Translations under genes and position numbers: made by a program | The notes under the pieces: generated by a model | The model's input: the letters and a program-made list of their open reading frames with translations, nothing else | Database searches by the model: none | What the model was told of the DNA's origin: nothing | DNA from: a virus | Lineage: Duplodnaviria > Heunggongvirae > Uroviricota > Caudoviricetes | DNA length: 25,587 nt | Direction: 5' to 3' (one strand) | IMG/VR virus record: IMGVR_UViG_2537561620_000017 | Location: 1-25,587 of that record | Shown: piece after piece, positions 1 through 25,587 of the stretch | Layout of the letters: each line of letters opens with the position of its first letter | How positions within the stretch are numbered: the stretch's first letter is position 1

Positions 1-46
1 AGGTTGCTCCGGGCTATGAAATAGAAAAATGAATCCGTTGAAGCCT

Positions 47-61
47 GCTTTTTTATACTAA
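47..61. other. attL: lambda-type attachment site core (attL, B-O-P' junction); bases 1-46 are the chromosomal arm
   Basis: Sequence gcttttttatactaa matches the 15-bp lambda att core from memory; left flank (gaatccgttgaagcct) resembles the attB left arm and right flank (gttggcattataaaaaagcattgcttatcaatttgttgcaacgaacaggtca...) resembles the lambda P' arm. Confidence 0.8.
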
Positions 62-134
62 GTTGGCATTATAAAAAAGCATTGCTTATCAATTTGTTGC
101 AACGAACAGGTCATTATCAGTCAAAATAAAATCA
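62..134. promoter_or_regulatory. P' arm of att site with Int arm-type and IHF binding sites
   Basis: Matches the lambda P' arm as recalled (caggtcattatcagtcaaaataaaatcattatttg), with one difference from my recollection of lambda (ggtcaTtat vs ggtcaCtat in the P'1-like site). Lies directly 3' of the int stop. Confidence 0.6.
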
Positions 135-1205
135 TTATTTGATTTCAATTTTGTCCCACTCCCTGCCTCTGTCATCACGATACTGTGATGCCATGGTGTC
201 CGACTTGTGCCCGAGAAGATGTTGAGCAAACTTATCGCTTATCTGCTTCTCATAGAGTCTTGCAGACAAACTGCGCAACTCGTGAAAGGTAGGTGGATCC
301 CCTTCGAAGGAAAGACCTGATGCTTTTCGTGCGCGCATAAAATACCTTGATACTGTGCCGGATGAAAGCGGTTCACGACGAGTAGATGCAATTATGGTTT
401 CTCCGCCAAGAATCTCTTTGCATTTATCAAGTGTTTCCTTCATTGATATCCCGAGAGCATCAACATGCAATGTTGTAGGGATGGCAATTTTTACGCCTGT
501 TTTGCTTTGCTCGACATAAAGATATCCATCTACGATATCAGACCACTTCATTTCGCATAAATCACCAACTCGTTGCCCGGTAACAACAGCCAGTTCCATT
601 GCAAGTCTGAGCCAACATGGTGATGATTCTGCTGCTTGATAAATTTTCAGGTATTCGTCAGCCGTAAGTCTTGATCTCCTTACCTCTGATTTTGCTGCGC
701 GAGTGGCAGCGACCGGGTTTGTTGTTATATGGCCTTCAGCTATTGCCTCTCGGAATGCATCGCTCAGTGTTGATCTGATTAACTTGGCTGATGCCGCCTT
801 GCCCTCGTCTATGTATCCATTGAGCATTGCCGCAATTTCTTTTGTGGTGATGTCTTCAAGTGGAGCATCAGGCAGCCCCCTCCTTATTGCTTTAATTTTG
901 CTCATGTAATTTATGAGTGTCTTCTGCTTGATTCCTCTGCTGGCGAGGATTTTTTCGTAGCGATCAAGCCATGAATGTAACGTAACAGAATTATCACTGT
1001 TGATTCTCGCTGTCAGAGGCTTGTGTTTGTGTCCTGAAAATAACTCAATGTTGGCCTGTATAGCTTCAGTGATTGCGATTCGCCTGTCTCGGCCTAATCC
1101 AAACTCTTTACCCGTCCTTGGGTCCCTGTAGCAGTAATATCCATTGTTTCTTATATAAAGGTTAGGGGGTAAATCCCGGCGCTCATGACTTCGCCTTCTT
1201 CCCAT
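135..1205 (-). CDS. int: tyrosine integrase, lambda Int
   Basis: 356-aa ORF; translation (MGRRRSHERRDLPPNLYIRNNGYYCYRDPRTGKEFG...HLLGHKSDTMASQYRDDRGREWDKIEIK) matches lambda Int as I recall it, including the C-terminal catalytic R..HxxR..Y region. Confidence 0.95.
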   Translation of the reverse strand: MGRRRSHERRDLPPNLYIRNNGYYCYRDPRTGKEFGLGRDRRIAITEAIQANIELFSGHKHKPLTARINSDNSVTLHSWLDRYEKILASRGIKQKTLINYMSKIKAIRRGLPDAPLEDITTKEIAAMLNGYIDEGKAASAKLIRSTLSDAFREAIAEGHITTNPVAATRAAKSEVRRSRLTADEYLKIYQAAESSPCWLRLAMELAVVTGQRVGDLCEMKWSDIVDGYLYVEQSKTGVKIAIPTTLHVDALGISMKETLDKCKEILGGETIIASTRREPLSSGTVSRYFMRARKASGLSFEGDPPTFHELRSLSARLYEKQISDKFAQHLLGHKSDTMASQYRDDRGREWDKIEIK

Positions 1206-1401
1206 TTCTGATCCTCTTCAAAAGGCTACCTGTTACTGGTCGATTTAAGTCAACCTTTACCGCTGATTCGTGGAACAAATACTCTCTTCCATCCTTAACC
1301 GGAGGAGGGAATATCCTGCACTCGCGTACCCATCGACGAACTGTTTCAAGGCTCCTTGGGCGTCGCTGGCGTGCGTTCCACTCCTGAAGTGTCAAGTACA
1401 T
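1183..1401 (-). CDS. xis: excisionase, lambda Xis
   Basis: 72-aa ORF MYLTLQEWNARQRRPRSLETVRRWVRECRIFPPPVKDGREYLFHESAVKVDLNRPVTGSLLKRIRNGKKAKS matches lambda Xis; 23-bp overlap with int as in lambda. Confidence 0.95.
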   Translation of the reverse strand: MYLTLQEWNARQRRPRSLETVRRWVRECRIFPPPVKDGREYLFHESAVKVDLNRPVTGSLLKRIRNGKKAKS

Positions 1402-1455
1402 CGCAAAGTCTCCGCAATTACTCGCAAGGGAGCGAGTATTGGTTTATTTTCTCCA

Positions 1456-1480
1456 ACAAAAAAGGAGCCGAAGCTCCTTT
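1456..1480 (-). terminator. intrinsic terminator between the AntA-like gene and xis
   Basis: Minus-strand RNA reads AAGGAGC-UUCG-GCUCCUU followed by a U-run: about 7-bp stem, UUCG tetraloop, T-tract, a few bases downstream of the AntA-like stop. Confidence 0.55.
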
Positions 1481-1485
1481 GATGA

Positions 1486-2109
1486 TTAAAATTCGAATTG
1501 TCTCGCCCGAAGGCTTTTCAGCATTGGTTTTGCCCGTTCGAAAAGGGCGCTTGCTTGGTCAAGTCGTGTCGCCTCCCTTAGCAGTACATCTCTGTTTTTC
1601 GTCACCGTGTAAAAAGTTTCAAACGCGATGTCATACAGCTTGCTCGTGTATGATGAGTTCAGTTCCTTCAATATCGGGTACAGACGTTTGCAGATGTCCT
1701 GCGCATTCTCCATCTGTACCTGCATATAGCAAAGGAGGATGATTTCTTCGTCTGTGAATTGCTGCGCTGGTTGCATGCTGCGAAGTTTCTTTTCGCACTC
1801 GATGAAGTATCGGCGTATCTGGCGGCCTTTTTCGTTACGCTCGACCATCGCCGTTTCTTTGGCTGTATCGAGGGTGAGGTGATAGTCTTTGCTACGGCGA
1901 TCGCCTCCACGTCCTTTGATCCCCCTGTTTTGGTGAACCAAAATGTAATCGACATCAACGGCAAAGCCGTATTCTGTTATGCGATTTTTAATCCATGTAG
2001 AGAAGTCACGACGTACTTCCAAAAATTCGTGTAAATCACGGGCATTAACGAGAAGAGTTGTTTCGTTGGATATAGTGCCGTTGAATACGGGGATGAGTTG
2101 ACTGGTCAT
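1486..2109 (-). CDS. AntA/AntB-type phage antirepressor-like protein
   Basis: 207-aa ORF; N-terminal LIPVFNGTISNETTLLVNARDLHEFLEVRRDFSTWIKNRITEYGF fits the AntA antirepressor domain pattern from memory; the C-terminal half is not assigned. Confidence 0.6.
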   Translation of the reverse strand: MTSQLIPVFNGTISNETTLLVNARDLHEFLEVRRDFSTWIKNRITEYGFAVDVDYILVHQNRGIKGRGGDRRSKDYHLTLDTAKETAMVERNEKGRQIRRYFIECEKKLRSMQPAQQFTDEEIILLCYMQVQMENAQDICKRLYPILKELNSSYTSKLYDIAFETFYTVTKNRDVLLREATRLDQASALFERAKPMLKSLRARQFEF

Positions 2110-2254
2110 TTTTATGTCCTTTGCATTTGTTCAGATAGCCCTGTGTTCAGCAGGGCGGTCAGGTACTTGAACACCGTGCAAAGTCGGCCCGTATCCTTAA
2201 CCTTTCGGCTGTTTTTCGGTATACGCGCTACCCGACCATATCTGAAAAATGGAC

Positions 2255-2287
2255 ATAAAAAATCCGCATGACTGACGGGTGCGGTTT
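2255..2287 (-). terminator. possible weak intrinsic terminator
   Basis: Minus-strand CCGCA...UGCGG hairpin (5-bp stem, 11-nt loop) followed by UUUUUU; short stem, so low confidence. Confidence 0.3.
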
Positions 2288-2430
2288 CCGCTTTGCAAGG
2301 TGTGTTCAGCACCATGAAGCGGAATATAGCCCCGTTAATGCGGTGTTGTCAAATCATGTAGGCCTTATCTTGCTGTAAGCCGCGCCATTCGGGCTTTTCC
2401 CCACATTTGGGGAAAACTATCTTGTCAAAA

Positions 2431-3138
2431 TCATGCAGCCTTTCGCTCTCCTTCGATGAGTTCCTCTATTTTGTGCACTCCAGCCTCGTTGTACCGAAAT
2501 GTTTCAACCTGCTTGTCATTGTGCGCCGATTTGTCGATGAACCACTTCCCGTACTTTTCTGTTTTGAGCATGTAGGTGTTGGCTATGCGTCCTACCTTGT
2601 TGGCTGAAATACCGTAGCGCTGGCCGACTTCCGTAGCAGAGTAGTAGTGCTCTGAGATAGCTGGCAGAGGTACAACATCGCGACCAACAATCGGGTTGAA
2701 CACTCCAGCTACTGCTGCCTGCTTTGATTCTGAGGACAGATTCGGGAACATATTCACCAGTCGATCCGCCACGTTCAAAGCTATTTCCATGGCTCGCGCA
2801 CGGTCTAGGCTACTTTCTGGTTGCGGTACTGGTTGAGGATGGTTGGCAACCTTTTCGCGCTGATTGAAGTAGCCGTCCTCCAGTTTTTCGAACACGTCCC
2901 ATGCCTGATCCGTTTCGAGCATCTTCGCGTGACGGGCGGCTCCGCGCTCTGTCCAGAGGATGAGGTGGCGTGCATTTGGGGCACTTTTCACAAAGTAGTT
3001 TAAAGCTACTTTGTGTTTTAGCGCGCGCAGCTCGTCACCAACGACCTTGTAGAAGTGTACCCCCTCAACAAAGCGCGACTTGTTTTCATGATGGTTTTGC
3101 CGGATGCGCACAACATCCGTTCCGTACAACTGCGCCAA
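2431..3138 (-). CDS. phage protein, KilA-N/ORF6N-like N-terminal domain (function unassigned)
   Basis: 235-aa ORF; N-terminal region (NHHENKSRFVEGVHFYKVVGDELRALKH...ILWTERGAARHAKMLETDQAWDVFEKLEDGYF) resembles ORF6N/KilA-N type phage regulatory domains. True start uncertain because it overlaps the upstream ORF by about 50 bp. Confidence 0.5.
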   Translation of the reverse strand: MAQLYGTDVVRIRQNHHENKSRFVEGVHFYKVVGDELRALKHKVALNYFVKSAPNARHLILWTERGAARHAKMLETDQAWDVFEKLEDGYFNQREKVANHPQPVPQPESSLDRARAMEIALNVADRLVNMFPNLSSESKQAAVAGVFNPIVGRDVVPLPAISEHYYSATEVGQRYGISANKVGRIANTYMLKTEKYGKWFIDKSAHNDKQVETFRYNEAGVHKIEELIEGERKAA

Positions 3139-3520
3139 TGTTTGGTGGGTAGTTGTTTTTAAAGTCAGCTGCTAACACATAGCATTGTCGCTCTCCCATT
3201 TCTGGCATTCGCTCACTACAGCTTATCCAGGCATCCGGAGTTACCGGCACTGGCTGGGCGGTATAAAGCGGTGTTATATCTGCCCGAAAATTACATGCTT
3301 TATGCAGCCGCACCCACCGTTCGACTTCTGCTTTGTCAGAATACATACCAGTGAACGTGTTATATTCACGGTCAATTTGCGTGAAGGTTACCTTCCACGC
3401 CACCGGCTCTGCTGTCAGCGATGCCAGAGCAATTTCATAAGCACGGCGTTCAACATTGTCTCGCACATCCAAACTGCTGATACGCTCTTTGATTTCTTTA
3501 ATCAGTTCTTTGTCGTTCAC
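3086..3520 (-). CDS. DUF551-family phage protein
   Basis: 144-aa ORF; WISCSERMPEMGERQCYVLA fits the DUF551 signature common in lambdoid early-left regions; the C-terminal tail looks atypical. Confidence 0.5.
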   Translation of the reverse strand: MNDKELIKEIKERISSLDVRDNVERRAYEIALASLTAEPVAWKVTFTQIDREYNTFTGMYSDKAEVERWVRLHKACNFRADITPLYTAQPVPVTPDAWISCSERMPEMGERQCYVLAADFKNNYPPNIGAVVRNGCCAHPAKPS

Positions 3521-3980
3521 TTATGCCTCCGATTCCCGGATGTCACCCAAATCAACGCTACAATGCCAACCAGTGCAACGAGCGCAAAACTATCAAGCAT
3601 CTCCAACCTCTTTAACGGTAACTGTCTGTGCCTCCAGTTCTGCTATGCGCTTTTCTGAGGCTTCAAGTAACGCCTGCTTATCGCGTAGCGCTTCTTCCAG
3701 TTCAGCAACATGGCATTCACTATCAATAAGGTTGTTCTCTGCTGCTTCCAGCTCAACACGCAACTTCCCTACCGTTAGCGCAATTTCCTCGTTCTCCTGA
3801 TCGCGGCTTTTGATGTATTGCAGGTTTCTTTCCCGTTCATCCAGTAGTGCCAGCGCAACATTTGGATTAAAAGCAGCAATAAATTCAGCGTTTGCATAAG
3901 CCTGAACATGAAGTGGCACACTGAATTTGGCCACCTGAACAGAGGTGATATGCTCACCTCAGAACAACACAGGTGCTCCA

Positions 3981-5149
<1,169 letters not shown>

Positions 5150-5506
5150 CCACTTCAACATCTGTTTCAACCAGGCAGTTAACATGACATTCCGCAATCA
5201 CACCACCGGGTTCTCCTTTCCATTTTTGACAAACAAAAACTCCTGTTAAATTGCCGTGCCGATTAACAGATGTATGCCCTACGATGTAGCTTCCTTTAGT
5301 TGCTTTTTCTGCCTTGGCACGCAGTGCCTGATAGTCAATCTTGCTCACTGGTTGCCTCCTTTGCGCCACATCGCATTCAGATATTTGTTGTCATTAACAG
5401 AACCGAAACTCTTTCTCTTAAGCAATTCCTCTCTCGATGGCATTGGCTTTACGCGCTGGCGAATAATCATTTCTGCCGGAAGAATGCCGGGATTGTGGAT
5501 TTGCCC

Positions 5507-6412
5507 CTATATTTCCAGACATCTGTTATCACTTAACCCATTACAAGCCCGCTGCCGCAGATATTCCCGTGGCGAGCGATAACCCAGCGCACTATGCGGA
5601 TGCCATTCGTTATAATGCTCGAACGCCTCTGCAAGGTTCTTTGCTGCCGTTAACCCGTCTGGTTTGGGCATGATACTGATGTAGTCACGCTTTATCGTTT
5701 TCACGAAGCTCTCTGCTATTCCGTTACTCTCCGGACTCCGCACCGCCGTGTTCTTCGGTTCAAGTCCCAACATCCGGGCGAACTGGCGTGTTTCATTAGC
5801 CCGGTAGCATGAACCATTATCCGTCAGCCACTCCACTGGAGACGACGGAAGATCGTTGCCGAAGCGGCGTTCCACCGCTCCCAGCATGACGTCCTGTACT
5901 GTTTCACTGTTGAAGCCGCCGGTAGTCACCGCCCAGTGCAGTGCCTCACGATCACAGCAGTCCAGCGCGAACGTGACACGCAGTCTCTCTCCGTTATCAC
6001 AGCAGAACTCGAACCCGTCAGAGCACCATCGCTGATTGCTTTCTTTCACGGCCACTCTGCCTGTATGTGCCCGTTTCGATGGCGGTACAGCAGGTTTTCG
6101 CTCAAGCAACAGCGCATTCTGGCGCATGATCCGGTAAACACGTTTGGCATTGATCGCAGGCATACCATCAAGTTCTGCCTGTCTGCGAAGCAGCGCCCAT
6201 ACCCGACGATAACCATACGTGGGCAGCTCTCCGATAACATGGTGTATACGGAGAAGCACATCCGTATCATCAGTGTGACGACTGCGGCGGCCATCCATCC
6301 AGTCATCGGTTCGTCTGAGAATGACGTGCAACTGCGCACGCGACACCCGGAGACAACGGCTGACTAAGCTTACTCCCCATCCCCGGGCAATAAGGGCGCG
6401 TGCGCTATCCAC
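5507..6412 (-). CDS. insD: IS2 transposase OrfB
   Basis: 301-aa ORF matching IS2 InsD, with the integrase-like catalytic core. Confidence 0.9.
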
Positions 6413-6735
6413 TTTTTTGCCCGTCCATATTCAACGGCTTCTTTGAGGAGTTCATTTTCCATCGTTTTCTTGCCGAGCAGGCGCTGGAGTTCTTTAATCT
6501 GCTTCATGGCGGCAGCAAGTTCAGAGGCAGGAACAACCTGTTCTCCGGCGGCCACAGCAGTAAGACTTCCTTCCTGGTATTGCTTACGCCAGAGAAATAA
6601 CTGGCTGGCTGCTACACCATGTTGCCGGGCAACGAGGGAGACCGTCATCCCCGGTTCAAAGCTCTGCTGAACAATTGCGATCTTTTCCTGTGTGGTACGC
6701 CGTCTGCGTTTCTCCGGCCCTAAGACATCAATCAT
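6370..6735 (-). CDS. insC: IS2 transposase OrfA
   Basis: [56 protein letters not shown]... matches IS2 InsC. Confidence 0.9.
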
Positions 6736-6826
6736 CTGTTCTCCAATGACTAGTCTAAAAACTAGTATTAAGACTATCACTTAAATAAGTGATACTGGTT
6801 GTCTGGAGATTCAGGGGGCCAGTCTA

Positions 6827-7494
6827 ATTGCCGCATCATCATCAGACTCCGGAACGCCCTCATACACATGTTTAAAACCATCCGGATCACGGCGTCGCGC
6901 CGCGTCGATAACCTTAAGCATGGTGTCAGACAGAAACGGATTTTCGTCATAGTTAATTTTGCGGATGAGAGTGCCTTCGGGCGGATCAACAACGAAGTTG
7001 CGCCAGACGAAATCAGTAACAAGTCCGGGGTTGAATATGAACCAGCATTCCGAACCCTCTTTACGGATCGTTGGCTCCAGAATTTTCCACTGGTATTCCG
7101 TCAGTGCGTGGGCTTCTTCCAGCCACAACACATCGATCCCCTCCAGTGACTTAATTTCTTCGATGTTGCGCCATAATCCATAAAAAACAAATTCCGAGCC
7201 AGTAACCCGGTTAATGATTTTGTTGTTCAGAATACGGAAACGGTGCCGCAGACCAAACCTGTCTATCTGAATTTTGAGCAGGGTATACACCGACTCTTCG
7301 ATTTTATTCTGGATCTGACGGGCACAACAAAAACGCAGGGTGTATTTATTCGACAGAAATATGGCAATGCCAGCGGCATCCCATGATTTTGACGATGACC
7401 GACCACCATAAAGCACTTTGTTACGTGCCCGCATAGTCCAGAAACTACGTAAAGCCGGATTCAGCGTCGGTTTGGATGTCAGAGTAGAAGTCAT
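6827..7494 (-). pseudogene. terminase large subunit, N-terminal ATPase domain only (3' end abuts IS2)
   Basis: Walker A-like LYGGRSSSKSWDAAG followed by DVLWLEEAH (Walker B-like) and an ATPase-domain-like region; the expected C-terminal nuclease domain is missing. The ORF runs into the IS2 end, and the start is uncertain (candidate Met codons at about 7494-7602). Confidence 0.55.
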
Positions 7495-7702
7495 TGAGGT
7501 CACGCTCTCCATTGCCATCATCAATACCTGCATCACGGCGAAGACGATCAGCCTCCAGAGACACCTTATCAGTGGCGGCCTTGCGGTAGGCTGTATCAGC
7601 AAATATTTTTCCTACCGTCGCAAGCGTGCCAACGATGGACTCAATACGAACTGTATTGCGCATCATTGCTTTCTCGGCGGCGCTGATATTTTCAATCAGC
7701 AT
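7445..7702 (-). CDS. hypothetical 85-aa ORF, in frame with terS after an amber codon
   Basis: Same reading frame as the upstream terS ORF, separated only by TAG at 7712-7714 and three codons; overlaps the 5' end of the terminase large subunit ORF. Could be a separate small gene or a C-terminal extension of terS. Confidence 0.3.
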   Translation of the reverse strand: MLIENISAAEKAMMRNTVRIESIVGTLATVGKIFADTAYRKAATDKVSLEADRLRRDAGIDDGNGERDLNDFYSDIQTDAESGFT

Positions 7703-7711
7703 CTTCCTTTC

Positions 7712-8209
7712 CTAGTCCCCATTAGCATCTTCCAGCGACACCAACCACCGACCAATATTCTCTGCAGCGACAAGGTTGTTAGCACGAAGGCGAAATAATT
7801 CGTCCTCGAGCGTCAACGCTTTAGCGTCCTCTATCACCTCATCTTTGAGCAGAAGGCGACGGGCATAACCACCGTGTTTTAATGCCTGCTGGTTACCGGG
7901 TTGGAATGGGTTAGTCGGGGGATCGGTACGCATTCCGCGTATCGGTTTCGTATCCGGTGTAGATTCTGTTTTTAGTTGCGTACTTTTTTGTGTAAGGCCA
8001 GTAATGGCAGGCTTTCTGCTGGTACGCACTTTCCTTTTTTGCGTACCATTTTTGCAAACCTGCGTACCGCCACTGCGTGCCCAACCAAGCTTTTTGGCCC
8101 TCTTCCTGATAGCCCCTTCTGTAACGCCGTATTTCTCGCCTATATCACGGAGGCTAAGGACTCCGGCCCGGTATGCCGATTCGATGGCCTCCCAGTCCGG
8201 TTTTGCCAT
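7712..8209 (-). CDS. terminase small subunit (HTH-containing)
   Basis: 165-aa ORF MAKPDWEAIESAYRAGVLSLRDIGEKYGVTEGAIRKRAKKLGW... N-terminal HTH typical of phage small terminase subunits, directly upstream of the large subunit ATPase ORF. Confidence 0.6.
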   Translation of the reverse strand: MAKPDWEAIESAYRAGVLSLRDIGEKYGVTEGAIRKRAKKLGWARSGGTQVCKNGTQKRKVRTSRKPAITGLTQKSTQLKTESTPDTKPIRGMRTDPPTNPFQPGNQQALKHGGYARRLLLKDEVIEDAKALTLEDELFRLRANNLVAAENIGRWLVSLEDANGD

Positions 8210-8406
8210 GATTATGCTTCCTGTGATTTACTGTTATCGTTGCCTGTCACAATAGGTTGCTTTAATTCTTCCTCATCACTCACTCCTGCGACGCTCCGTG
8301 GCAGGGCCCCCCACAGGAGTACCTTGTAAATGTAAGGTGTTTAAGCCTAAATTAAGTCGTATCACGGTTAAATAGCAAAGAAAAATTCACAGAAGGAAAG
8401 ACATTG

Positions 8407-8916
8407 ATGGAGTGGATAAATGCTTTGATGAACTATTTTGTACTTCATCCATATCGCCTATGGGGGCTTCTTTTTATAATAGCGTTCACAAAATCCACTT
8501 TACTCATTTCGGCGATATTGCCACCAGCATCAATTATGATGGCCACTGTAATTACAGTCAGCAAGACGACTCTTTCACCATGGGAAGCTGGAATCACGGT
8601 CATGAGTGGCGCATGGTGCGGTACTATCGTTAATTACCATCTTGGTATAATAATTGGGCATATCCCTCAACTTGCATGTATAATATCGAGCCGTTCCAAT
8701 ACAATAGAACGGGTTCGCCTTCAGTTGCAAAATAACTCTGTGTCAATACTTTTCACTTCGCGCTTTATCGCCGTGCTGCGTTACATTGCTCCTTTGGTGG
8801 CAGGAATGTTGCAACTTCATCCAGTGAAAGTGTATACAGTGAGTCTGATTTCAGCTGCTAGCTGGTCAGCACTTTATGTTGGTAGTTTTAGCTTCGTGTT
8901 GCCTTTTTTTAGCTAA
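8407..8916 (+). CDS. DedA/VTT-family-like small inner membrane protein
   Basis: Multi-pass hydrophobic ORF (WGLLFIIAFTKSTLLISAILPPASIMMATVITV...GAWCGTIVNYHLGIIIGH) resembling the DedA/SNARE-associated family; AGGA-type ribosome binding site upstream of the ATG at 8407. Confidence 0.45.
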   Translation: MEWINALMNYFVLHPYRLWGLLFIIAFTKSTLLISAILPPASIMMATVITVSKTTLSPWEAGITVMSGAWCGTIVNYHLGIIIGHIPQLACIISSRSNTIERVRLQLQNNSVSILFTSRFIAVLRYIAPLVAGMLQLHPVKVYTVSLISAASWSALYVGSFSFVLPFFS

Positions 8917-9254
8917 ACTGCCCATAAAAAGCTCTTGCGAATCCAGCTTCCCCCATTCCTCTGACAACAGAATCTGATTTGAAGGATAATGAGTAAAATT
9001 ACCGCTACCCCCCAAGGCATTGGATCCTGATGTACTCCTGAAGCATTCTCAATGCTGTCTGGTCGCTGATGATTCCGTCCCGGATACCGAGAACGTTTCG
9101 TCCAGCAACTGGAGAGAGTTCGACGGTGGCATCATTGCCCATGCCGGAGGCGCTGGAGGTTTCGGCTGAGGAGTAAGCGCCCCATCAGCGACGTCTTGTG
9201 AAAATTGTCCTGTCTGGCAACAATCGCGCCCATCTATATTGATGGACACGAACG

Positions 9255-9929
9255 ATGAATTCCCAGACAACAAAAGATATTCCCTGCTTCCGTTCTTATT
9301 TGCCTGATGCCCTGCGTTTAAGATTTGAAGATAAACTGACCATCCGGGCCATCGCTCAGCGTCTGGGTCTCAGTCATTCCACAATACATATGCTTTTTCA
9401 GCGATTTCTTGCATCCGGTATCGCATGGCCATTGCCCGATTCAGTTTCATTCGCTCAACTTGACGCCATCCTTTATGCCAACAGAAAGAAGGAATTAACA
9501 GAGCCTCAAATCAGAGAAGGCTCATGGCGAAAAGAACGGCGAACCAGCTATAGCCGTGAATTTAAGGTCCGTCTGGCTAAGCAGGCGTTACAGCCTGGGG
9601 CTGTTGTTGCCCGGATCGCCAGAGAACACGATATCAATAATAACCTGCTGTTTAAATGGAAAAGCCAGTACGAGGACGGCTTACTGAGCGATGATGACAT
9701 ACAGGAATGCATGCCTGTCCCGGTGGCACTGACTGATACGCCGGAGCCGACCAGACCAGTTACAAATCCCTTCTGGCGTAACAAGCATGATGAGCGCCCT
9801 GAGGGGGCTCCCGGAAACGTCCCACGGTGCGAGCTGCATCTTAAATCAGGTGTGGTAAAACTGTTTGACCCTCTCACTCCGGAACTGTTACGGGCGCTAA
9901 TCCGCGAAATGAAAGGGGGTATCCGATGA
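9255..9929 (+). CDS. IS66-family accessory protein (orf1 / TnpA-like)
   Basis: First ORF of the IS66-type element; 224 aa, longer than I expect for a canonical IS66 orf1, so the true start may be internal. Confidence 0.6.
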   Translation: MNSQTTKDIPCFRSYLPDALRLRFEDKLTIRAIAQRLGLSHSTIHMLFQRFLASGIAWPLPDSVSFAQLDAILYANRKKELTEPQIREGSWRKERRTSYSREFKVRLAKQALQPGAVVARIAREHDINNNLLFKWKSQYEDGLLSDDDIQECMPVPVALTDTPEPTRPVTNPFWRNKHDERPEGAPGNVPRCELHLKSGVVKLFDPLTPELLRALIREMKGGIR

Positions 9930-10273
9930 TAACGCTGCCGACCGGTACCAAAATCTGGATCATCGCTGGCATCACAGATATGCGTTGTGGCTTCAATGGC
10001 CTGGCTTCGAAGGTGCAGAACACGCTGAAAGATGACCCGTTCTCCGGGCATATCTTCGTCTTCCGGGGCCGCAGTGGCAAAATGGTGAAAATACTGTGGG
10101 CCGATCGTGACGGGTTATGCCTGTTCGCCAAACGCCTGGAACGGGGCCGCTTCGTCTGGCCGGTGACCCGGGAAGGGAAAGTGCACCTGACGCCAGCTCA
10201 GTTATCCATGCTACTGGAGGGGATCGCGTGGCAACATCCCAAACGGACAGAACGGCCTGGCATCCGGATATAA
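9926..10273 (+). CDS. IS66-family Orf2 (TnpB)
   Basis: 115-aa ORF MITLPTGTKIWIIAGITDMRCGFNGLASKVQNTLKDDPFSGHIFVFRGRSGKMVKILWADRDGL... typical IS66 Orf2; overlaps orf1 by 4 bp. Confidence 0.85.
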   Translation: MITLPTGTKIWIIAGITDMRCGFNGLASKVQNTLKDDPFSGHIFVFRGRSGKMVKILWADRDGLCLFAKRLERGRFVWPVTREGKVHLTPAQLSMLLEGIAWQHPKRTERPGIRI

Positions 10274-10292
10274 CCCGTGATAAAACAAGGGA

Positions 10293-17664: not shown

Positions 17665-20009
17665 TTAATACTCCGTCACGTTTTCCTGTCGCCACGCCTC
17701 GTCATATTCCGATTTCGGCATATTGGCGATGTAGCTATATGGCGATCCTGATTCAAGTTGCAGGAACTGGTGCGATTGCTCGTCAAGGAACAACGGGACA
17801 CCACCTTCCCAACCTTCGCCGTTACGTTGTTTTTCAAGCATCAAAACAGATGCCGGAGATGCCAGTAGCTGTTCGTCCTTCTCTGACATCTTTTCACCAC
17901 TCTGAACTCTCTGTAACGCTCTCTCGCGAGCCTTGTTACGCCAGATGATGAAAAGGTTGTCTGTCAGGTCTGTTATCGCTCCAGAGCCTTTTACGTCCAT
18001 TTTCCCGGTTGGTTTTTCTTCGCTGTCTCCTTTTCGCGAGTGAGTAACGAGAATGACGTGGGAGTTTGTTTTGTTTTTGAAGTCGCAAATCGAGTCAACA
18101 AACGCCTTCTGCCCGTTATAGTCATCGTCGCCTATGCCACATTTCATCAGGCTGTCGATGATGAATAACTGGATCCCGTATCGGCGGCGAGCGTAGTCGA
18201 ATATTTCGATCAGCCTGTCGGCTTTCGCCGTTCCAGTCAGGCCAAACACCCAAAGTCTTTCGTCATAAAATTTAAATGCAGAGTCAATTTCCAGCACTGG
18301 CGGCATCTTGCAGCACGTTGCCTGACGGGTAAGTCGCTTAAGGAGAATACCAGGCTTCAGCTCAAGTGACGCGATGCACGTCTTCACACCCTGACGCATT
18401 GCCTCAAGTGCCATATGCCCGACAACCTCGGTGTTATGCGTCGCCACATATCCCCTGGTTACATACAGGTGGCGAGGGTGATCGACCATAATACACAAGC
18501 ATTCTGCATTGCCGATTTTTTCAACATTCCTGACGAATACCCCACAGCCCTCGAATCGATGCGCAGTTAATCTGCCATTGAGTCGTGGTGAACGGATGGC
18601 CTCCCTGATTTCTCTTGTCAGTCTGATTCTTGCCTCGTATGAATCCATCCCATGCCGCTTATCGTCCTTGTATGTGTATGTCACGCCAGTTTTAACTCGC
18701 GTCCGGCATGACCCGCCGAGTGAGTTAACCAGTTGAACAACCCCATTGCGCAGTTCTTCACTTGCTGAGGAAAAACAAGCGTTCCATCCTTCTCGACATA
18801 CCCATCCGTTTCAAGCAGACCACACAGCATGCCTATACGCGTTGATTTATTTGCGGAAAAAAACACACGAGGGATGAATTTGTTTTTTGCTGTGCACCCC
18901 ATTAGTCCATAACCTCGCAGGGTCTCCATGAGTGGATTTACCTGACCACGCGCCGTTGATATCAGCCAGTCCTTACCATCTCCAGAGAAGTTGTAATCAG
19001 GCAGTTCAGCCTTCATACGCTCGATCATGTATGGCTCGACGTTTGAAAACTTCACGCTCCCATTGCTAAGACTACCATCCCCGAGAAGGGAGCCGATAAC
19101 CCATGCTAATGGCTCTGAGTGGTCGCCAAAGTCACCAGTTATTTCAGGAATCCTAACGCCATTTTTGTGCCTCTTCGTTTCACTCAACCGCTTCAACCCG
19201 AAGGTATCTATCACGCGGCGTTTCTCGCCTTTCGTGAATCCACGACTAGTGACCTCCCATAGGTGATCGCCTGCGCAATCAACATAACGACCATCTTCAA
19301 ATGTGACTCGGTAAACATCTCTAACACCCTGCGGGAATATCCCAGTGACAGTTGACGGATTGCCGTCTACTGACGCCACCTGATCGCCAATTTTTACATT
19401 CCCGTGAGTAGTCCATGTCCCATCAGCTAAAAGAATAGGCTCATTCAGTGGGCATGCCTTTCCGTGACCGTTCACACCATTGACCAGCGTCAACTCTGCC
19501 TCACGGAACTGGAATTTATCTGCCAGAGATTCCCACGGTGGATTAAACAGATACTGCTGCTTGCCGTAGAAAGCGTTGATAGTGTCCTGGTAAAACTCTC
19601 GCGCACTGTAGAGTTCTTCAGGATCGAAGTAGGATGCCGTGCCGATGTACTGCCAGATTTCATCCTCGGTAACACCGTTCATCAGGCATTCGTTGATGTC
19701 TTTGTACGGCAGAGTAACAAGACGGCAACGATGTTCACCGAGTCGGCTTGCGATTTCCCTTGCGGCTTCACGACCAACATCATCAACGTCCATCGAGATG
19801 AATATTTCCTCAAACCTGTCGAGGTTATGATACTCAAACTCAATCCACTGTTGCTTAGCGCCTTTCCCGCCACCAAACGGCACGGATAACGCCGAGATGC
19901 CGTATTGCGCATAGCTCATACAATCAATTTCGCCTTCGCAAAGCACAACCGCCCTCACGCCAGCGTCCAGAGCCTGCCATCCGAACAGGCAAGGTTCGCA
20001 ATCACCTTC
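17665..20009 (-). pseudogene. T7 gp4-like primase-helicase carrying an intein; 5' end removed by IS629; frame broken inside the intein
   Basis: TOPRIM-like start (AVVLCEGEIDCMSYAQYG), helicase motifs in the downstream ORF (LFIIDSLMK, HVILVTHSRKG, GSGAITDLTDNLFIIWRNK, resembling T7 gp4 helicase). The reading frame continues upstream to the IS629 boundary (EGDCEPCLFGWQALDAG...). The gene appears as two ORFs (18681..19958 and 17665..18684) overlapping by GTGA. Confidence 0.75.
18433..19454 (-). other. intein with LAGLIDADG homing endonuclease domain
   Basis: Begins CPLNEPILLADGTW (block A-like) right after GVNGHGKA, has two LAGLIDADG-like motifs (LAWVIGSLLGDGSL and IGMLCGLLETDGYV), and ends ...ECLCIMVDHPRHLYVTRGYVATHN followed by Thr (+1). 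Span is 1022 nt, one base short of 341 codons, consistent with a single-base deletion. Confidence 0.75.
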
Positions 20010-20051
20010 TGAACCGCCCCGGGTTTCCTGGAGAGTGTTTTATCTGTGAAC

Positions 20052-20942
20052 TCAGGCTGCCAGATCATCGTTTCCGATGGAAGCATAATAAGCTTTTTCT
20101 GCTTCTGCCGGAGGGATGTGGCCCAGCCTTTCCAGCAATCGTCGATTGTTATACCAGTCCACCCACGTTAGTGTGGCCAGTTCCACTTCTGCACGGTTTT
20201 TCCAGCTCTTACGGTGTATTACCTCCGCTTTGTAAAGACCATTGATGCTCTCCGCCATCGCGTTGTCATACGAGTCGCCTGTACTTCCTGTTGATGCCAG
20301 TAATCCGGCTTCCTTAAGCCGCTGTGTGTAGGCCAGCGATACATACTGAGAACCTTTATCACTGTGATGGACCGTGCCGGACGGTCGACGGCCCCATAAC
20401 GCCTGCTCCAGTGCATCCAGCACGAATGTCGTTTCCATGGACGATGAGACCCGCCACCCCACGATGTATCCGGCAAACACATCAATGATGAACACCACAT
20501 AGACGAAGCCCCTCCATGTGCTGACGTAAGTAAAATCAGCCACCCACAGCTGGTCAGGTCGTTCTGCCACGAACTGACGGTTTACGCGGTCGCCTGCGGC
20601 AACGGCTTTCCGGCTGATGGTCGTACGGACCTTTTTACCCCGGAGAACACCGGCAAGTCCCATAACCGCCATGAGACGTGCCACAGTGCATCTGGCCACT
20701 CTGATACCTTCCCGTAACAACTGACGCCAGACTTTACGCACACCGTATACCTTGTGATTTTCATCGTATACGCGCTGTATCTCTTTCTTCAGCCAGTCAT
20801 CGCGCTGCGCACGGGCACTGCGTTTATCCGGATGATGTCGCTGTTGCTGACAGTGGTAATACGTTGACGGGGCAATATGCAGTTCGCTGCATAGCGGTCC
20901 GACCCCGTACTGCTCACGCAGCTTATCCAGCAGTGGCATCAT
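20052..20942 (-). CDS. IS629 transposase OrfB
   Basis: 296-aa ORF with an IS3-family catalytic core, in the -1 frame relative to orfA. Confidence 0.85.
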
Positions 20943-21265
20943 TTTTTCCAGAGGTGGTCGAACTCCGCCTTCGCAAAATAAGCGGAAGCCTGCCGAAGGA
21001 TATCGTTACTGCGGCGCAGTTCACGATTTTCACGCTCCAGCTCTTTCAGACGCTGACGTTCAGCGGTGGTGAGCCCTCCATCACCGCCCCCGGTATCCCG
21101 CTCATGCTGGCGAACCCAGACACGCAGAGTCTCCGGCGTACAGCCAATCTTTGGAGCAATGGAACAAATTGTCGCCCATTGTGAGTCATATTCGCCCTGA
21201 CTTTCCAGAACCATACGGACTGCCCGTTGACGGACTTCGGGGGAAAAACGAGTATTTTTAGTCAT
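20939..21265 (-). CDS. IS629 transposase OrfA
   Basis: [61 protein letters not shown]... matches IS629-type OrfA. Confidence 0.85.
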
Positions 21266-21319
21266 CCTGTTTACCTCTTTCTCAGGAAGTTTAGTCTCCA
21301 GGATTCCCGGGGCGGTTCA

Positions 21320-21798
21320 CTTTGTTTTCTGTCTGAGGGTTCATGCTGTACCCAGTTGTAATAACCGCTCCTGGATACACCAAATACCTGACACATCGCT
21401 TCAATGGGAAATTGTTGTCGCCATTGTTCGATTAACGCGTATTTTTCAGCGACTCCTGTGCAAAATACGCTGTTGCTTTTTTTAATATATCTCGCTCAAG
21501 GCGAGCTTCATTTAACGCCTTACGCAGTTGCAGAATTTCAGATTCCAGTTCAGCCACCGTGCGGGAACCAGGAGTACCGAGCCCTTTTCTGGCGGCGGTA
21601 ACCCATTGTCCTAAAGTGCCTTCAGGAAGGGATAATCGGGAAGCGCCTTCACTGATCGAAAGTTGATTTTCAAGAACCGTTCTGACAGCTTCGGCTTTGA
21701 ACTCTTTAGAGTAACGTTGGGTTTTTCTGCTCATTATTAGCTCCTTCTGATGCCATTCTATTTCAGGAAGGAGTGTCCGTTAAACTCAGGCTACCTCA
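21320..21798 (-). mobile_element. IS600 remnant (left end, orfA and first ~35 codons of orfB), truncated by IS629
   Basis: Terminal sequence TGAGGTAGCCTGAGTTTAACGGACACTCC (read on the minus strand) ending at 21798; orfA intact; orfB N-terminus (QWRQQFPIEAMCQVFGVSRSGYYNWVQHEPSDRKQ) runs into the IS629 end. Confidence 0.75.
21432..21734 (-). CDS. IS600 transposase OrfA
   Basis: [51 protein letters not shown]... matches IS600 OrfA as recalled. Confidence 0.8.
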
Positions 21799-21799
21799 G

Positions 21800-23134
21800 G
21801 CAGTTTTCTCTATCACGAAAAAACATCAGCCCTATGAATTTAAGAATTTCATTTCAGCCTGGCTGGATACCGAACACATTGATCGCGGTCTTCTGACAAA
21901 AGAATGGCGAAAAGGGAATCGTGTTTCACGCATCACTCGCACGACTTCCGGTGCTAATGCTGGCGGCGGGAACCTCACCGATCGCGGCGAAGGTTTCGTC
22001 CACGATCTGACGTCACTGACGCGCGATGTAGCCACTGGCGTACTGGCCCGTTCAATGGACGTGGACATCTATAACCTTCATCCGGCACACGCTAAACGCA
22101 TTGAGGAAATTATCGCTGAAAATAAACCACCCTTTTCTGTTTTCCGCGACAAATTCATCACCATGCCTGGCGGGCTGGATTATTCCCGCGCCATCGTGGT
22201 TGCGTCCGTGAAAGAAGCACCAATTGGGATCGAGGTCATCCCCGCACACGTCACTGAATATCTGAACAAAGTACTGACTGAAACCGATCATGCCAACCCT
22301 GATCCGGAAATCGTGGATATTGCCTGCGGTCGCTCCTCTGCCCCGATGCCGCAGCGAGTAACAGAAGAAGGAAAACAGGACGATGAAGAAAAACCACAAC
22401 CATCTGGCGCAATGACAGATGAACAGGCAACGGCTGAAACAGTGGAACCGAATGCAACTGAACATCATCAGAACACGCAGCCGCTGGATGCTCAGTCACA
22501 GGTAAATTCTGTTGATGAGAAATATCAGGAACTGCGGGCAGAACTCCATGAAGCCCGGAAAAACATTCCGCCCAAAAATCCTGTCGATGCAGACAAATTA
22601 CTGGCTGCCTCTCGCGGAGAATTTGTTGAAGGGATTAGCGACCCGAATGATTCGAAATGGATTCCCGGTCATCATATCTCCTCAAATGAAGTCAAAAAAA
22701 CGGAAAATGAAGTGCGACAGACTGAAGATAAACAGCACCAGAACAGCGAACCGGAGGAGGGAACACCCTGCAATCAGACTGGCGAGGATAACTGCCCTGA
22801 CTGTGGCGCGGTGATGGGAGACGCAACTTATCAGGAAACTTTTGACGAAAAAAAACCAGATGAAGCACAGGAAGAAGAGCCGAAGAAAACGGAAAAAGCT
22901 GATGATTTGTTACCGGAGAACGCTGGCAGCGATCAGCATAATGATAGCAATAATGAAACTGGCGAAGATGAACTCAACTGGAAAAAACAGGTGTTGATTG
23001 CGGCGGTTTACGGTTTATGTGCGAATCCTGCGTGCATAGCCTATGCGCCTGCAATCCCTGACATCGCAATGATGATTGCCAACAAGCTTGAAAATTTTGG
23101 AGTGACCAGTGATGAGCGCTTACCCGATTTTTGA
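21800..23134 (+). pseudogene. large acidic phage early protein, possibly RecE (exonuclease VIII)-like N-terminal region; 5' end removed by IS600
   Basis: The ORF continues out of the IS600 end (the first codons are IS-derived). It has a long Asp/Glu-rich segment, CxxC (CPDCGAV) and sits at the head of an early-left operon ahead of a recombination ATPase. The RecE assignment rests on position and composition only. Confidence 0.35.
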
Positions 23135-23408
23135 TCGTATTGAAGAAATGGCATGGGCTCGCCACTACCAGCAGATCGTTCGTGAAGAAAAAGAAACGGA
23201 ACTGGCGGACGACCTGGAAAAAGGTCTGCCTCAGCACCTGTTTGAATCGCTCTGCATCGACCATTTGCAACGCCACGGTGCCAATAAACAGGCAATCAGC
23301 CACGCATTTGATGATGATGTTGAGTTTCAGGAGCGCATGGCAGAACACATCCGGTACATGGCTGAAACCATTGCCCACCACCAGGTTGATATTGATTTGG
23401 AGGACTAA
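23112..23408 (+). CDS. hypothetical acidic small protein
   Basis: About 98 aa ([38 protein letters not shown]...); start overlaps the upstream stop; no family recognised. Confidence 0.4.
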
Positions 23409-23413
23409 AATCT

Positions 23414-24241
23414 ATGGCGCTTTTTCAACGAGCAATAAACACACAGGCCTATCTAAAAGCAGGAATTATGGGGTTTGCTGGCGACGGCAAAACCTACACA
23501 GCAAGCGAACTGGCTATTGGTCTGGTAATGCTTATGCGGCAACGGGGAATTGAAGCTGGTAACCGCCCGGTAATGTTTCTGGACACAGAAACAGGCTCTG
23601 ACTGGGTTAAACCCCGCTTTGATGCGGAAAATATCGAATTATTTACGGCAAAAACCCGCTCGTTTGTTGATCTGCTTGAAGCCATTAATGAAGCGGAAAG
23701 CAGCGGTTCCGTAATGATCATCGACTCCATCAGTCACTTCTGGACCGGATTATGCGACGAGTATGCCAGACGCCGAAACCGTAAACGAGGACTGGAATTT
23801 TCAGACTGGGCGTGGCTCAAACAGGAGTGGCGACGCTTTACCGATCGATTTGTTAACAGTCAGGCGCACATTATTATGTGCGGGCGTGCAGGATATGAGT
23901 ATGACTTTTTCGAAGGTGATGATGGCAAACGCCAGTTGGCAAAAACCGGTATAAAAATGAAAGCAGAAACAGAAACCGGTTATGAACCCTCCATCCTGAT
24001 CCAGATGGAGAAGCAAATGAACATAGAAACCGGTCAGGTGTGGCGCACCGCCAGAATACTAAAAGATCGCTCCACCCGTATTGATGGACAGGTATTTTCA
24101 AACCCAACATTTAAAAACTTTCTTCCTCATATCGAGTTTCTTAACCTGGGAGGTGAACACCTCGGCATCGATACCTCACGGGATAACAGTGAATTATTTG
24201 CCAACGACGGTACACCGACATGGCTAAAAGAAAAGCGTGCA
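23414..24241 (+). pseudogene. Sak4-like / RecA-fold P-loop ATPase, 3' end truncated by IS1
   Basis: Walker A GFAGDGKTYTASELAIG and Walker B VMIIDSISHF; the last codons of the track ORF ([25 protein letters not shown]) are read from the IS1 end. Confidence 0.55.
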
Positions 24242-24256
24242 GGTAATGACTCCAAC

Positions 24257-24760
24257 TTACTGATAGTGTTTTATGTTCAGATAATGCCCGATGACCTTGT
24301 CATGCAGCTCCACCGATTTTGAGAACGACAGTGACTTCCGTCCCAGCCTTGCCAGATGTTGTCTCAGATTCAGATTATGTCGCTCAATGCGCTGAGTGTA
24401 ACGCTTGCTGATAACGTGCAGCTTTCCCTTCAGGCGTGATTCATACAGCGGCCAGCCATCCGTCATCCATACCACGACCTCAAAGGCCGACAGCAGGCTC
24501 AGAAGACGCTCCAGTGTGGCCAGAGTGCGTTCACCGAAGACGTGCGCCACAACCGTCCTCCGTATCCTGTCATACGCGTAAAACAGCCAGCGCTGACGTG
24601 ATTTAGCACCGACGTAGCCCCAATGTTCGTCCATTTCAGCGCAGACAATCACATCACTGCCCGGTTGTATGCGCGAGGTTACCGACTGCGGCCTGAGTTT
24701 TTTAAGTGACGTAAAACCGCGTTGAGGCCAACGCCCATAATGCGTGCACTGGCGCGACAT
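24257..24760 (-). CDS. insB: IS1 InsB (expressed as InsAB' by frameshift)
   Basis: 167-aa ORF matching IS1 InsB. Confidence 0.9.
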
Positions 24761-24954
24761 CCGACGCCATTCATGGCCATATCAATGATTTTCTGGTGCG
24801 TACCGGGCTGAGAGGCGGTGTAAGTGAACTGTAGTTGCCATGTTTTACGGCAATGAGAGCAGAGATAGCGCTGATGTCCGGCAGTGCTTTTGCCGTTACG
24901 CACCACGCCTTCAGTAGCGGAGCAGGAAGGACATCTGATGGAAATGGAAGCCAC
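24679..24954 (-). CDS. insA: IS1 InsA
   Basis: [68 protein letters not shown]... matches IS1 InsA. Confidence 0.9.
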
Positions 24955-25009
24955 GCAAGCACCTTAAAATCACCATCATACACTAAATCAGTAAGTTGGC
25001 AGCATTACC

Positions 25010-25587
25010 GTCTTGCCGAAGAAGATCCAGCTTCTGCAACCAGGCCATTCAGAACTGAAGTGAAGCGCAGTCGACTGTTAATTGACGAGTATCTGTTAAT
25101 CAGGAAAATAGCAGACGTCCAGAACGAATGGTTCGGCCTTTGCATGGATCTTGCACTGGTAACAGGACAGCGCGAAGGAGATCTGGCGGCTATGAGATGG
25201 GAGGATATAAGAGATAGCAGGCTATACGTGGAACAACAAAAAACAGGGGCAAAAATTCGCATTTCTCTCCCCACCACGATTTCCAGATTGAATTTAACAC
25301 TTGCCGATGTACTGGATAACTTGAAAAAAATAAACGGTAAAAACGAAAAGTTACTCGGAGGGAAGACAGCCAGGACAATCGCAGCACAGTTCAGGATTGC
25401 CCGAGACACATCCGGATTGAAATGGGAAGGTGACCCACCGCCATTTCATGAAATCCGAAGTTTATCCGGTCGCCTGCACTCAGCAGAAAAAGGCAGTGAT
25501 TTCACTCAGGCGCACCTTGGACATCGTTCATCCAGCATGACGGATAAATACCGTGACGGACGAGGGAGGGAATGGAAAGACATTTAG
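25010..25587 (+). pseudogene. second lambda-family tyrosine integrase, C-terminal catalytic fragment (N-terminus replaced by IS1)
   Basis: ...RSRLLIDEYLLIRKIAD...LALVTGQREGDLAAMRWEDIRDSRLYVEQQKTGAKIRISLPTT...GDPPPFHEIRSLSGRL...HLGHRSSSMTDKYRDGRGREWKDI aligns with the lambda Int catalytic domain but diverges in sequence; stop at 25585-25587 at the window edge. Confidence 0.8.

Follow-up and report, generated by a model that had tools for sequence, protein, structure and literature searches.

The 25,587-nucleotide (nt) stretch of DNA studied here (virus record IMGVR_UViG_2537561620_000017, positions 1 to 25,587; hereafter the window) begins with the attachment site, integrase gene (int) and excisionase gene (xis) of phage lambda, continues with genes that do not belong to lambda, and ends with a fragment of a second integrase gene that is transcribed outward. 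Is this one prophage or two, and how did two integrases come to point away from each other? An initial annotation, made from the sequence alone, had left the choice between two prophage remnants lying tail to tail and one element with an internal inversion. The window proved to be the whole ybhC-ybhA interval of Shigella flexneri K-1770. It very probably consists of two neighbouring, different lambdoid prophage remnants, riddled with insertion sequences (IS) and joined back-to-back by an inversion at an IS2 element. The first (prophage 1, window 1–5495) is a lambda-att prophage at the lambda attB between ybhC and ybhB. The second (prophage 2, window 6827–25587) is a prophage integrated at the start codon of pgl, beside ybhA. 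The two were originally about 9 kb apart and in the same orientation.

The part of the window that was compared with contig AKMX01000023.1 of assembly GCA_000268245.1 (window 1898–25587) was 100% identical to it, and the strain name K-1770 is given for this assembly in a table of PMC6397287. Identity to S. flexneri 3b strain SFL1520 (CP032513.1) was 99.986%. The SFL1520 genome is complete and was obtained by hybrid Nanopore and Illumina sequencing; it contains 15 phage regions, mostly cryptic, and 355 IS open reading frames (ORFs) (PMC6424224).

Two attachment sites, two integrases

The first 61 bases of the window are identical (61/61) to positions 1–61 of the ybhC-ybhB intergenic region of Escherichia coli K-12 MG1655, and the two sequences diverge at base 62. 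Bases 1–46 are the chromosomal B arm of the lambda attB, directly upstream of ybhC, which abuts the window start in loci L001 and L030; the initial annotation had correctly read these 46 bp as the attB arm. They are followed by the 15-bp att core (O) GCTTTTTTATACTAA at 47–61, identical in K-12 attB and in lambda attP. From base 62 onward, K-12 has the B' arm (CTTGAGCG...) and the window the lambda P' arm (GTTGGCATTATAAAAAAGC...), which extends from 62 to 150. Alignment to lambda placed within this P' arm of attL an H'-like site for integration host factor (IHF), TATCAATTTGTTG, at 87–99, and three arm-type sites, P'1 (107–117), P'2 (118–127) and P'3 (128–138), the last of which overlaps the int stop codon. 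The names P'1, P'2, P'3 and H' are assigned on the assumption that the established anatomy of lambda att applies here.

By sequence comparison, the segment 62–206 with its predicted Int and IHF sites is identical to lambda except for one base in P'1, where a difference had been suspected: position 114 is T, against C in lambda (CAGGTCATTAT versus CAGGTCACTAT). T114 was present in every examined prophage that carries, like the window, an AntA gene after int and xis (AntA-module prophages; loci L025, L027, L030–L035, L039 and L041), and C was found at this position in lambda and in O157-type prophages (loci L005–L011). T114 thus reads as a lineage polymorphism of AntA-module prophages, not as a lesion private to the window. 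As a separate observation, the attL core is one T shorter than the canonical 15-bp core, GCTTTTTATACTAA, in two of these relatives, the E. coli strain FDAARGOS_944 (L041, near 33215) and GCA_031665325.1 (L025).

The similarity to lambda runs through both recombination genes. Megablast aligned window 47–1428 with positions 27724–29105 of lambda J02459 at 98.3% DNA identity over 1382 bp, and homology stops near 1428. The int gene (135–1205, minus strand) encodes an intact integrase of 356 amino acids (aa), 353 of which are shared with lambda Int. The substitutions are H164P, A245T and I248V; all catalytic residues (R-K-H-R-H-Y) are unchanged, and the arm-binding, core-binding and catalytic domains are all there (Pfam Arm-DNA-bind_1, Phage_int_SAM_1 and Phage_integrase). 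Exactly the same 356-aa protein occurs in more than 25,000 assembly blocks, including that of O157:H7 EC4115, and the allele is a common prophage allele, not a private one. The xis gene (1183–1401, minus strand; Pfam Exc) encodes an intact 72-aa excisionase, identical to lambda Xis at 71 positions, and overlaps int by 23 nt, an arrangement that is the same in lambda. The reading of att core, P' arm, int and xis as lambda's is therefore borne out by these alignments, and so is the claim that the genes after xis are not lambda's: the lambda genes expected beyond xis (ea8.5, ea22, exo, bet and others) were not found, and AntA, ORF6N and DUF551 genes stand there instead. To judge from these matches, the left 1.4 kb is a bona fide lambda attL-int-xis module, and the window as a whole is not lambda.

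The other end of the window belongs to another prophage. Positions 25010–25587 (plus strand) hold int2', the 578-bp remainder of the prophage 2 integrase gene with its C-terminal 192 codons, the stop codon forming the last triplet of the window. It is 99.5% identical to int2 of E. coli FDAARGOS_944 and FDAARGOS_943, and the full-length Int2 encoded there has 373 aa and shares 45% identity with lambda Int over the entire protein. The window does carry, as first proposed, a second, divergent lambda-family integrase fragment that is transcribed outward at its far end. It is no complete integrase: 192 of 373 codons are left, the arm-binding domain is missing, and xis2, its partner gene, is deleted. 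Directly before int2' lies a complete IS1 (24242–25009, minus strand; 768 bp with 23-bp inverted repeats) without a 9-bp target duplication, which marks a 1272-bp deletion comprising the 3' end of an AAA ATPase gene, DUF1187, xis2 and the first 181 codons of int2.

A search to the right of base 25587 for a second att site, as the initial annotation had suggested, was successful, and the site is an attL, not an attR. Its 9-bp core, CTTCATGAA, lies 76–84 nt to the right of window base 25587 in the source contig. This core (attL2) was defined by comparing the right flank of the source contig with the unoccupied site in K-12 and with the other prophage end in FDAARGOS_944. The complement of CTTCATGAA overlaps the start codon of pgl, which in FDAARGOS_944 is also the location of the attR2 counterpart. 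The right flank, in four S. flexneri assemblies, reads int2', 75 nt of phage arm, the core CTTCATGAA, ybhA, modCBA, acrZ, modEF and galE.

The IS2 junction and the inversion

The two remnants meet at a single IS2 of 1331 bp (5496–6826, minus strand). One of its ends is the ancestral boundary with terL, the large terminase gene of prophage 2, and the other abuts a lambda-like DUF2737 gene of prophage 1. Its flanks are GATTG and ATTGC, and there is no 5-bp target duplication.

The un-rearranged state of both prophages was found in E. coli FDAARGOS_944, an ipaH-carrying, IS-rich strain in which the two int genes are on the same strand and are separated by pgl-ybhC. The layout there is ybhA, then attL2-int2-xis2-AAA-Gam-RecE...terS-terL-portal...tail-ipaHb, then pgl-ybhD-ybhH-ybhI-ybhJ-ybhC, then attL-int-xis-AntA-ORF6N-DUF551-Ea22...exo-bet-gam...cI-cro-cII. 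Window 1–5349 maps to this genome in plus orientation and window 6827–25587 in minus orientation. The IS2 thus behaves as a hybrid element, which lacks a duplication and joins segments that are neither adjacent nor similarly oriented in FDAARGOS_944.

The order of the host genes agrees with this. In K-12 it is modABC-ybhA-pgl-ybhD-ybhH-ybhI-ybhJ-ybhC-attB-ybhB-bioA, and in SFL1520 it is gal-mod-ybhA-[window, reversed]-ybhC-ybhJ-ybhI-ybhH. The block from ybhH to ybhC is therefore inverted relative to gal-mod-ybhA, and a deletion cannot yield this order. Leftward from the window lie ybhC, ybhJ, ybhI interrupted by an IS1, ybhH and a further IS1; the left-flank DNA retrieved, from ybhC to the IS1 after ybhH, contained neither ybhD nor pgl. 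One inversion with breakpoints in terL and in DUF2737 would convert a layout of the FDAARGOS_944 type into the window together with both of its flanks. Of the two alternatives first proposed, two remnants stands, with different att sites and separate locations in FDAARGOS_944, and a single element does not; the inversion is chromosomal, lies between the prophages and flips ybhH-ybhC.

Other S. flexneri genomes show what preceded the junction. In five other complete genomes (L052–L056), IS2 is a simple insertion in terL, at the same nucleotide and in the same orientation, and is flanked by a perfect duplication of GCAAT. The boundary between the N-terminal part of terL, ending in GCAAT, and the IS2 is retained in K-1770 and SFL1520, which have lambda-like DNA beyond the other end of the element. 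A sixth genome (L057) keeps the opposite boundary, IS2 followed by GCAAT and the C-terminal part of terL, and has a Rha gene on the other side. Therefore, the insertion is ancestral in the species and the copy has since recombined in different ways in different lineages. The course of events would then be as follows. An IS2 inserted into the terminase gene of an S. flexneri ancestor and may later have taken part in an inversion whose other breakpoint lay in the lambda-like DUF2737 gene, most likely by homologous recombination with a second, inverted IS2 copy. Such an inversion would have flipped the left end of the lambda-like prophage together with ybhC-ybhJ-ybhI-ybhH, leaving the integrase genes directed outward at the ends of a 25.6-kb composite.

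Several explanations compete with this one. The first takes the whole window as a single lambda-att phage with a flipped middle, the second integrase being a gene that it acquired or carried internally; both integrases are indeed of the lambda family, and gene orientation does switch at the IS2. However, the right end has its own phage arm, its own 9-bp core and a chromosomal flank at pgl/ybhA, the two prophages of FDAARGOS_944 are separate with about 9 kb of host genes between them, and the host genes ybhC-ybhH were inverted together with the left remnant. The flanks of the window refute the single prophage, which we regard as very improbable. We give equally little credence to an artefact of assembly, in which the IS2 repeat would have mis-joined unrelated contigs. 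The K-1770 assembly has draft status, Shigella carries multiple copies of IS2, and most short-read assemblies of S. flexneri break at these IS copies; but the same join is present in the independently sequenced SFL1520, with one mismatch and two gaps over 21 kb, and the flank order in SFL1520 (ybhA...ybhC-ybhJ-ybhI-ybhH) is consistent with it. The last alternative, that the composite is a functional unit under selection, such as a segment inverted by Int and Xis or a satellite-like element using int-xis-attL, is the least credible of all. In its favour, int and xis are intact and near-identical to lambda's, and attL is complete. Yet the window contains no cII, N or immunity genes, pseudogenes occur throughout, and in other S. 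flexneri lineages an IS600 cuts the same int at window position 1075, while IS911 or IS1 splits it in S. sonnei-like genomes. Int is therefore dispensable, which argues against selection for it. Similarly far-fetched is the idea that the intact Int, Xis and attL, inverted relative to a surviving attR near ybhB, may flip a multi-kb segment including ybhC-ybhH and the prophage remnants instead of excising; if true, it would make this a phage-recombinase-driven invertible region in S. flexneri.

A more serious, though still doubtful, alternative accepts the same two remnants but derives them by several IS-mediated steps, either large inversions at IS600, IS911 or IS1 and the dcuC region with deletions after them, or transposition of IS2 within the molecule, rather than by one recombination between two IS2 copies. 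Of the six IS elements or IS fragments in the window, four are without target duplications, and IS911 alone is inserted simply. This IS2 and the IS911 are joined to other partners in other S. flexneri lineages. On the left, an IS1 after ybhH closes the flank, with ybhD and pgl out of sight. A number of observations also weigh directly against a single inversion. The reciprocal junction, in which an IS2 would link the C-terminal half of terL to the remainder of the lambda-like prophage, was sought in K-1770 and SFL1520 and not recovered: the C-terminal half of terL, used as a query, matched only S. flexneri fragments on contigs of at most 5.6 kb, a look-up of the portal cluster gave ten other S. 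flexneri genomes but not SFL1520, and an extended AntA look-up did not include SFL1520 either. In L054 and L055, ybhC-int' is joined to Rz1-DedA-terS through IS600 and IS911; in L057, Rha is joined through IS2 to the C-terminal part of terL; and in several strains (among L052–L062) the head-gene block (terL C-terminal part, portal, MuF, scaffold and capsid) is joined via IS600 to a Mu-like transposase remnant beside dcuC, a gene about 140 kb away in K-12. The species has undergone several successive rearrangements, and the full history was probably multi-step. In addition, four of the five IS2 flanking bases coincide if shifted by one position (GATTG versus ATTGC), which we treated as chance. 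On the other side, one inversion between the terL IS2 and DUF2737 suffices, and the window demands no step beyond it except local deletions. The C-terminal half of terL and the portal, MuF, scaffold and capsid genes are still present in S. flexneri, one contig (L036) starting 8 nt from the breakpoint. We consider the single-step inversion the most parsimonious reading, with recombination between two IS2 copies as its presumed mechanism.

No published account of the breakpoint pair terL::IS2/DUF2737, or of a ybhH-ybhC flip between two adjacent att sites, was found by a literature search, which gave general genome papers only. Recombination has recurred at the terL IS2, with outcomes that vary among S. 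flexneri lineages, and this element could serve as a structural lineage marker. The IS911 beside Rz1, which likewise has different partners in different lineages, is another potential marker.

Gene content and state of the two remnants

The first gene after xis in prophage 1 is an antirepressor-family gene with AntA and P22_AR_C domains (1486–2109, minus strand; Pfam). It is also found after xis in prophages of E. coli (loci L024–L029) and in the free Lambdavirus PDP110P1 (94%). An RNA of the sRNA-Xcc1 family was matched in its leader (2149–2237, minus strand; Rfam RF02221, 68.3 bits versus a gathering threshold of 53). Next come an ORF6N-domain gene (2431–3168, minus strand; Pfam) and the remnant of a DUF551 gene (3086–3520, minus strand; weak Pfam hit), which is 100% identical to loci L024 and L027. 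The 5' part of the ORF6N gene is fused to the DUF551 gene, a fusion that corresponds to a 337-bp deletion between 11-bp direct repeats at 3138–3148. An Ea22-like gene (Pfam Ead_Ea22) is split into a C-terminal part (3593–3908, minus strand) and an N-terminal part by a simple insertion of IS911 (3909–5157, plus strand) with a 3-bp target duplication, ACA; after removal of IS911, 3593–3908 is contiguous with 5158–5348. The N-terminal part and a truncated DUF2737 gene (together 5158–5495, minus strand; Pfam) match L024 7848–7162 and form the end of the lambda-like remnant. A second small lineage-specific deletion, of 345 bp, lies near 5364. Apart from these changes, prophage 1 is close to E. coli lambda-att prophages such as those of CP065611.1 and FDAARGOS_944, with identities of 99.8% over window 1–3148 and 100% over 3138–3909.

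Genes related to the set that follows xis in prophage 1 are widespread in phages encoding Shiga toxin (Stx). By their domains and relatives, the AntA, ORF6N, DUF551 and Ea22 genes belong to the mosaic set of early-left (b/ea-region) genes that lambdoid and Stx-type phages usually carry. They had at first been called non-lambda cargo. The description holds in that the genes are not lambda's, but they are no special cargo: they are ordinary lambdoid early-left genes with relatives in free phages.

The int-xis-AntA family is not confined to the lambda site. In two E. coli genomes (GCA_012772275.1, locus L024, and GCA_031665305.1, locus L038) it adjoins, at about 12000–12100, lpd-aceF-aceE and not ybhC. 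The junction, ...ATTCTTATCAGTAA|GTTGGCATT..., represents a secondary attachment site, the core of which is altered. A second copy of the int-xis-AntA module, with a frameshifted int, lies beside lpd in FDAARGOS_944 (L040).

Prophage 2, read from right to left, consists of int2', RecE'-Gam-AAA (plus strand), then primase-helicase, phiTE_015-like gene, NinB, NinE, Rha, DnaC-like and DnaB' (minus strand), then DedA, terS and the N-terminal part of terL. Relative to int2, this order and these orientations are canonical for lambdoid phages, and they match the layout of the FDAARGOS_944 prophage. Prophage 2 is interrupted by three deletions, each associated with an IS element. Window 6827–9172 and 11927–13899 are collinear with an uninterrupted series DnaC-DnaB-NinH-Q-holin-lysozyme-Rz-DedA-terS-terL in S. 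flexneri L056; the second remnant is therefore one phage with deletions, not a patchwork. The stretch from replication genes to terminase was assigned to prophage 2 because the canonical gene order then needs deletions only. Its assignment to the lambda-att prophage was rejected, as it needs two inversions and leaves a conflict in the orientation of ybhC and ybhA.

At the early-left end, a fragment of a RecE-family gene, Gam and an AAA_24 ATPase gene truncated at its 3' end (21799–24241, plus strand; Pfam) are 99.6% identical to FDAARGOS_944 (L003 16285–18728). The position expected for the immunity region is occupied by an IS629 (20010–21319, minus strand; 1310 bp, 25-bp inverted repeats, no target duplication), which contains an ALIL frameshift pseudoknot, and by an abutting IS600 fragment (the orfA end; 21320–21798, minus strand) that is 100% identical to the IS600 copy in L004. 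Next comes a Toprim primase-helicase gene with a Hint/LAGLIDADG intein (17665–19958, minus strand), frameshifted by a 1-nt deletion. The intein-like insertion is located at the P-loop of the primase-helicase, from ...GHGKA/CPLNEP... to ...VATHN/TEVV... In other S. flexneri assemblies the gene is intact, with an ORF of 760 aa, and the 1-nt deletion of the window falls within the endonuclease domain.

NinE, NinB and the phiTE_015-like gene (16732–17590, minus strand; Pfam) are separated from a Rha/Phage_ASH antirepressor-type gene (15182–15988, minus strand; Pfam) by a Gp49 (HigB-like)/HTH toxin-antitoxin pair (16062–16690, plus strand), in which the toxin gene has a broken frame. SFL1520 has an ORF of 109 aa for this toxin, and the frame break of the window is one of only two indels that separate the two strains over the 13.8 kb compared. 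Two RNAs were matched in tandem on the minus strand upstream of the Rha gene, the C4 antisense RNA (15800–15887; Rfam, 80 bits) and isrK (15912–15988; 62 bits). They resemble a P1/P7-style antisense control module within a lambdoid remnant, and the 338-aa Rha-region ORF as called probably over-extends across them.

A DnaC/IstB-type loader gene and a phage DnaB-type helicase gene (11927–14056, minus strand; Pfam) follow, the latter with its C-terminus cut by ISSfl3; DnaB has 463 aa in L056. ISSfl3 itself (IS66 family, 2754 bp; 9173–11926, plus strand) lacks an 8-bp duplication and stands in for about 3.6 kb (NinH, Q, holin, lysozyme and Rz) that is present in L056. Between the lysis and terminase genes, on the opposite strand, is a gene for a DedA/VTT-family membrane protein (8404–8916, plus strand). 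It was kept in every examined copy of the prophage 2 family and resembles a moron gene. The gene at the position of the small terminase (7445–8209, minus strand) is a 254-aa ORF in L052–L054 and is disrupted here, being split into ORFs of 165 and 85 aa. Last come the N-terminal 222 codons of a PBSX-family large terminase (6827–7494, minus strand; Pfam Terminase_3), 99.8% identical to FDAARGOS_944 (L003 1467–2134).

The window is not a complete or inducible lambdoid prophage: immunity, Q, lysis, tail and, beyond the N-terminal part of terL, head genes are absent from it. The terS, primase-helicase and Gp49 toxin genes are disrupted, and int2 has lost its xis and the half that binds DNA. Neither remnant can excise as a phage. 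In prophage 1, int, xis and attL are themselves intact, and pL/N and cII, the regulators of int and xis, are lost; the two genes are probably silent passengers. After the inversion, the attL of prophage 1 would no longer be in direct orientation with any remaining attR. The host genes that flank the composite are decaying too, with ybhA split or frameshifted on the right and ybhI cut by IS1 (flanks in L020, L021 and L030).

All modules of the window have close relatives in free lambdoid or Stx phages, and the composite is what genome decay in Shigella ordinarily produces, and no element of a new kind. Two outward-facing integrases and a lambda int-xis followed by foreign genes are found here because of lambdoid mosaicism, of two adjacent attachment sites in the gal-bio interval, and of IS-driven decay and inversion in Shigella. 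The value of the analysis is mainly that of a clean negative result, in which an odd-looking arrangement is fully accounted for by well-known processes. A further point is that prophage predictors would report this 25.6-kb interval as a single prophage, whereas it holds two.

Comparison with known prophages

With lambda itself, the left end shares the chromosomal site, the 15-bp core, the P' arm and the int/xis overlap, and Int and Xis are each 99% identical. It differs by one C-to-T change in P'1, by non-lambda DNA beyond base 1428 and by the lack of sib, attR and any pL/N or cII context; this prophage is a 4-kb stump.

Closer relatives are the AntA-module lambda-att prophages of E. coli, enteroinvasive E. 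coli (EIEC) and Shigella (FDAARGOS_944, CP065611.1 and the S. sonnei remnant). They have the same T in P'1 and the same order int, xis, AntA, ORF6N, DUF551, Ea22. Elsewhere these prophages continue into exo/bet/gam, the immunity region and late genes, whereas the copy in the window stops at the IS2 in DUF2737 and has, in addition, IS911 and two small deletions. The S. sonnei-like remnant beside ybhB, unlike the window, continues into tail-fibre genes and an ipaH gene.

Prophage 2 has its counterpart in the pgl/ybhA prophage of FDAARGOS_944 and FDAARGOS_943, which has a PBSX-type terminase, Rac-like early genes and ipaHb at its right end. Identity to the window is 99.5–99.8% over int2', RecE'-Gam-AAA and DedA-terS-terL-N, and the attL2 junction beside ybhA is the same. 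The S. flexneri prophage differs from it in the replication/nin module (intein-containing primase-helicase, NinB/NinE, Rha, DnaC/DnaB). In contrast to the FDAARGOS_944 prophage, it no longer has an immunity region or Q, lysis, head and tail genes at this locus, and its int2 and terL are truncated. In FDAARGOS_944 (L041 21761–24468) and also in L043, the attR end of the pgl-site prophage carries, directly upstream of pgl, the type III secretion system effector gene ipaHb and a DNA-invertase fragment. The start codon of pgl is an integration site of an ipaH-carrying prophage family in EIEC and Shigella. Following ipaHb into S. flexneri was uninformative for this locus: an identical IpaHb is encoded there in a different remnant, near purL.

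Finally, the window resembles what is known of IS-mediated inversions and grounded (cryptic) prophages in Shigella (see the review PMC6379469); the prophages of SFL1520 have been described as cryptic (PMC6424224). It is likewise dense in IS1, IS2, IS600, IS629, IS911 and ISSfl3, and it contains joins without duplications and pseudogenised phage genes; nothing in it is different in kind.

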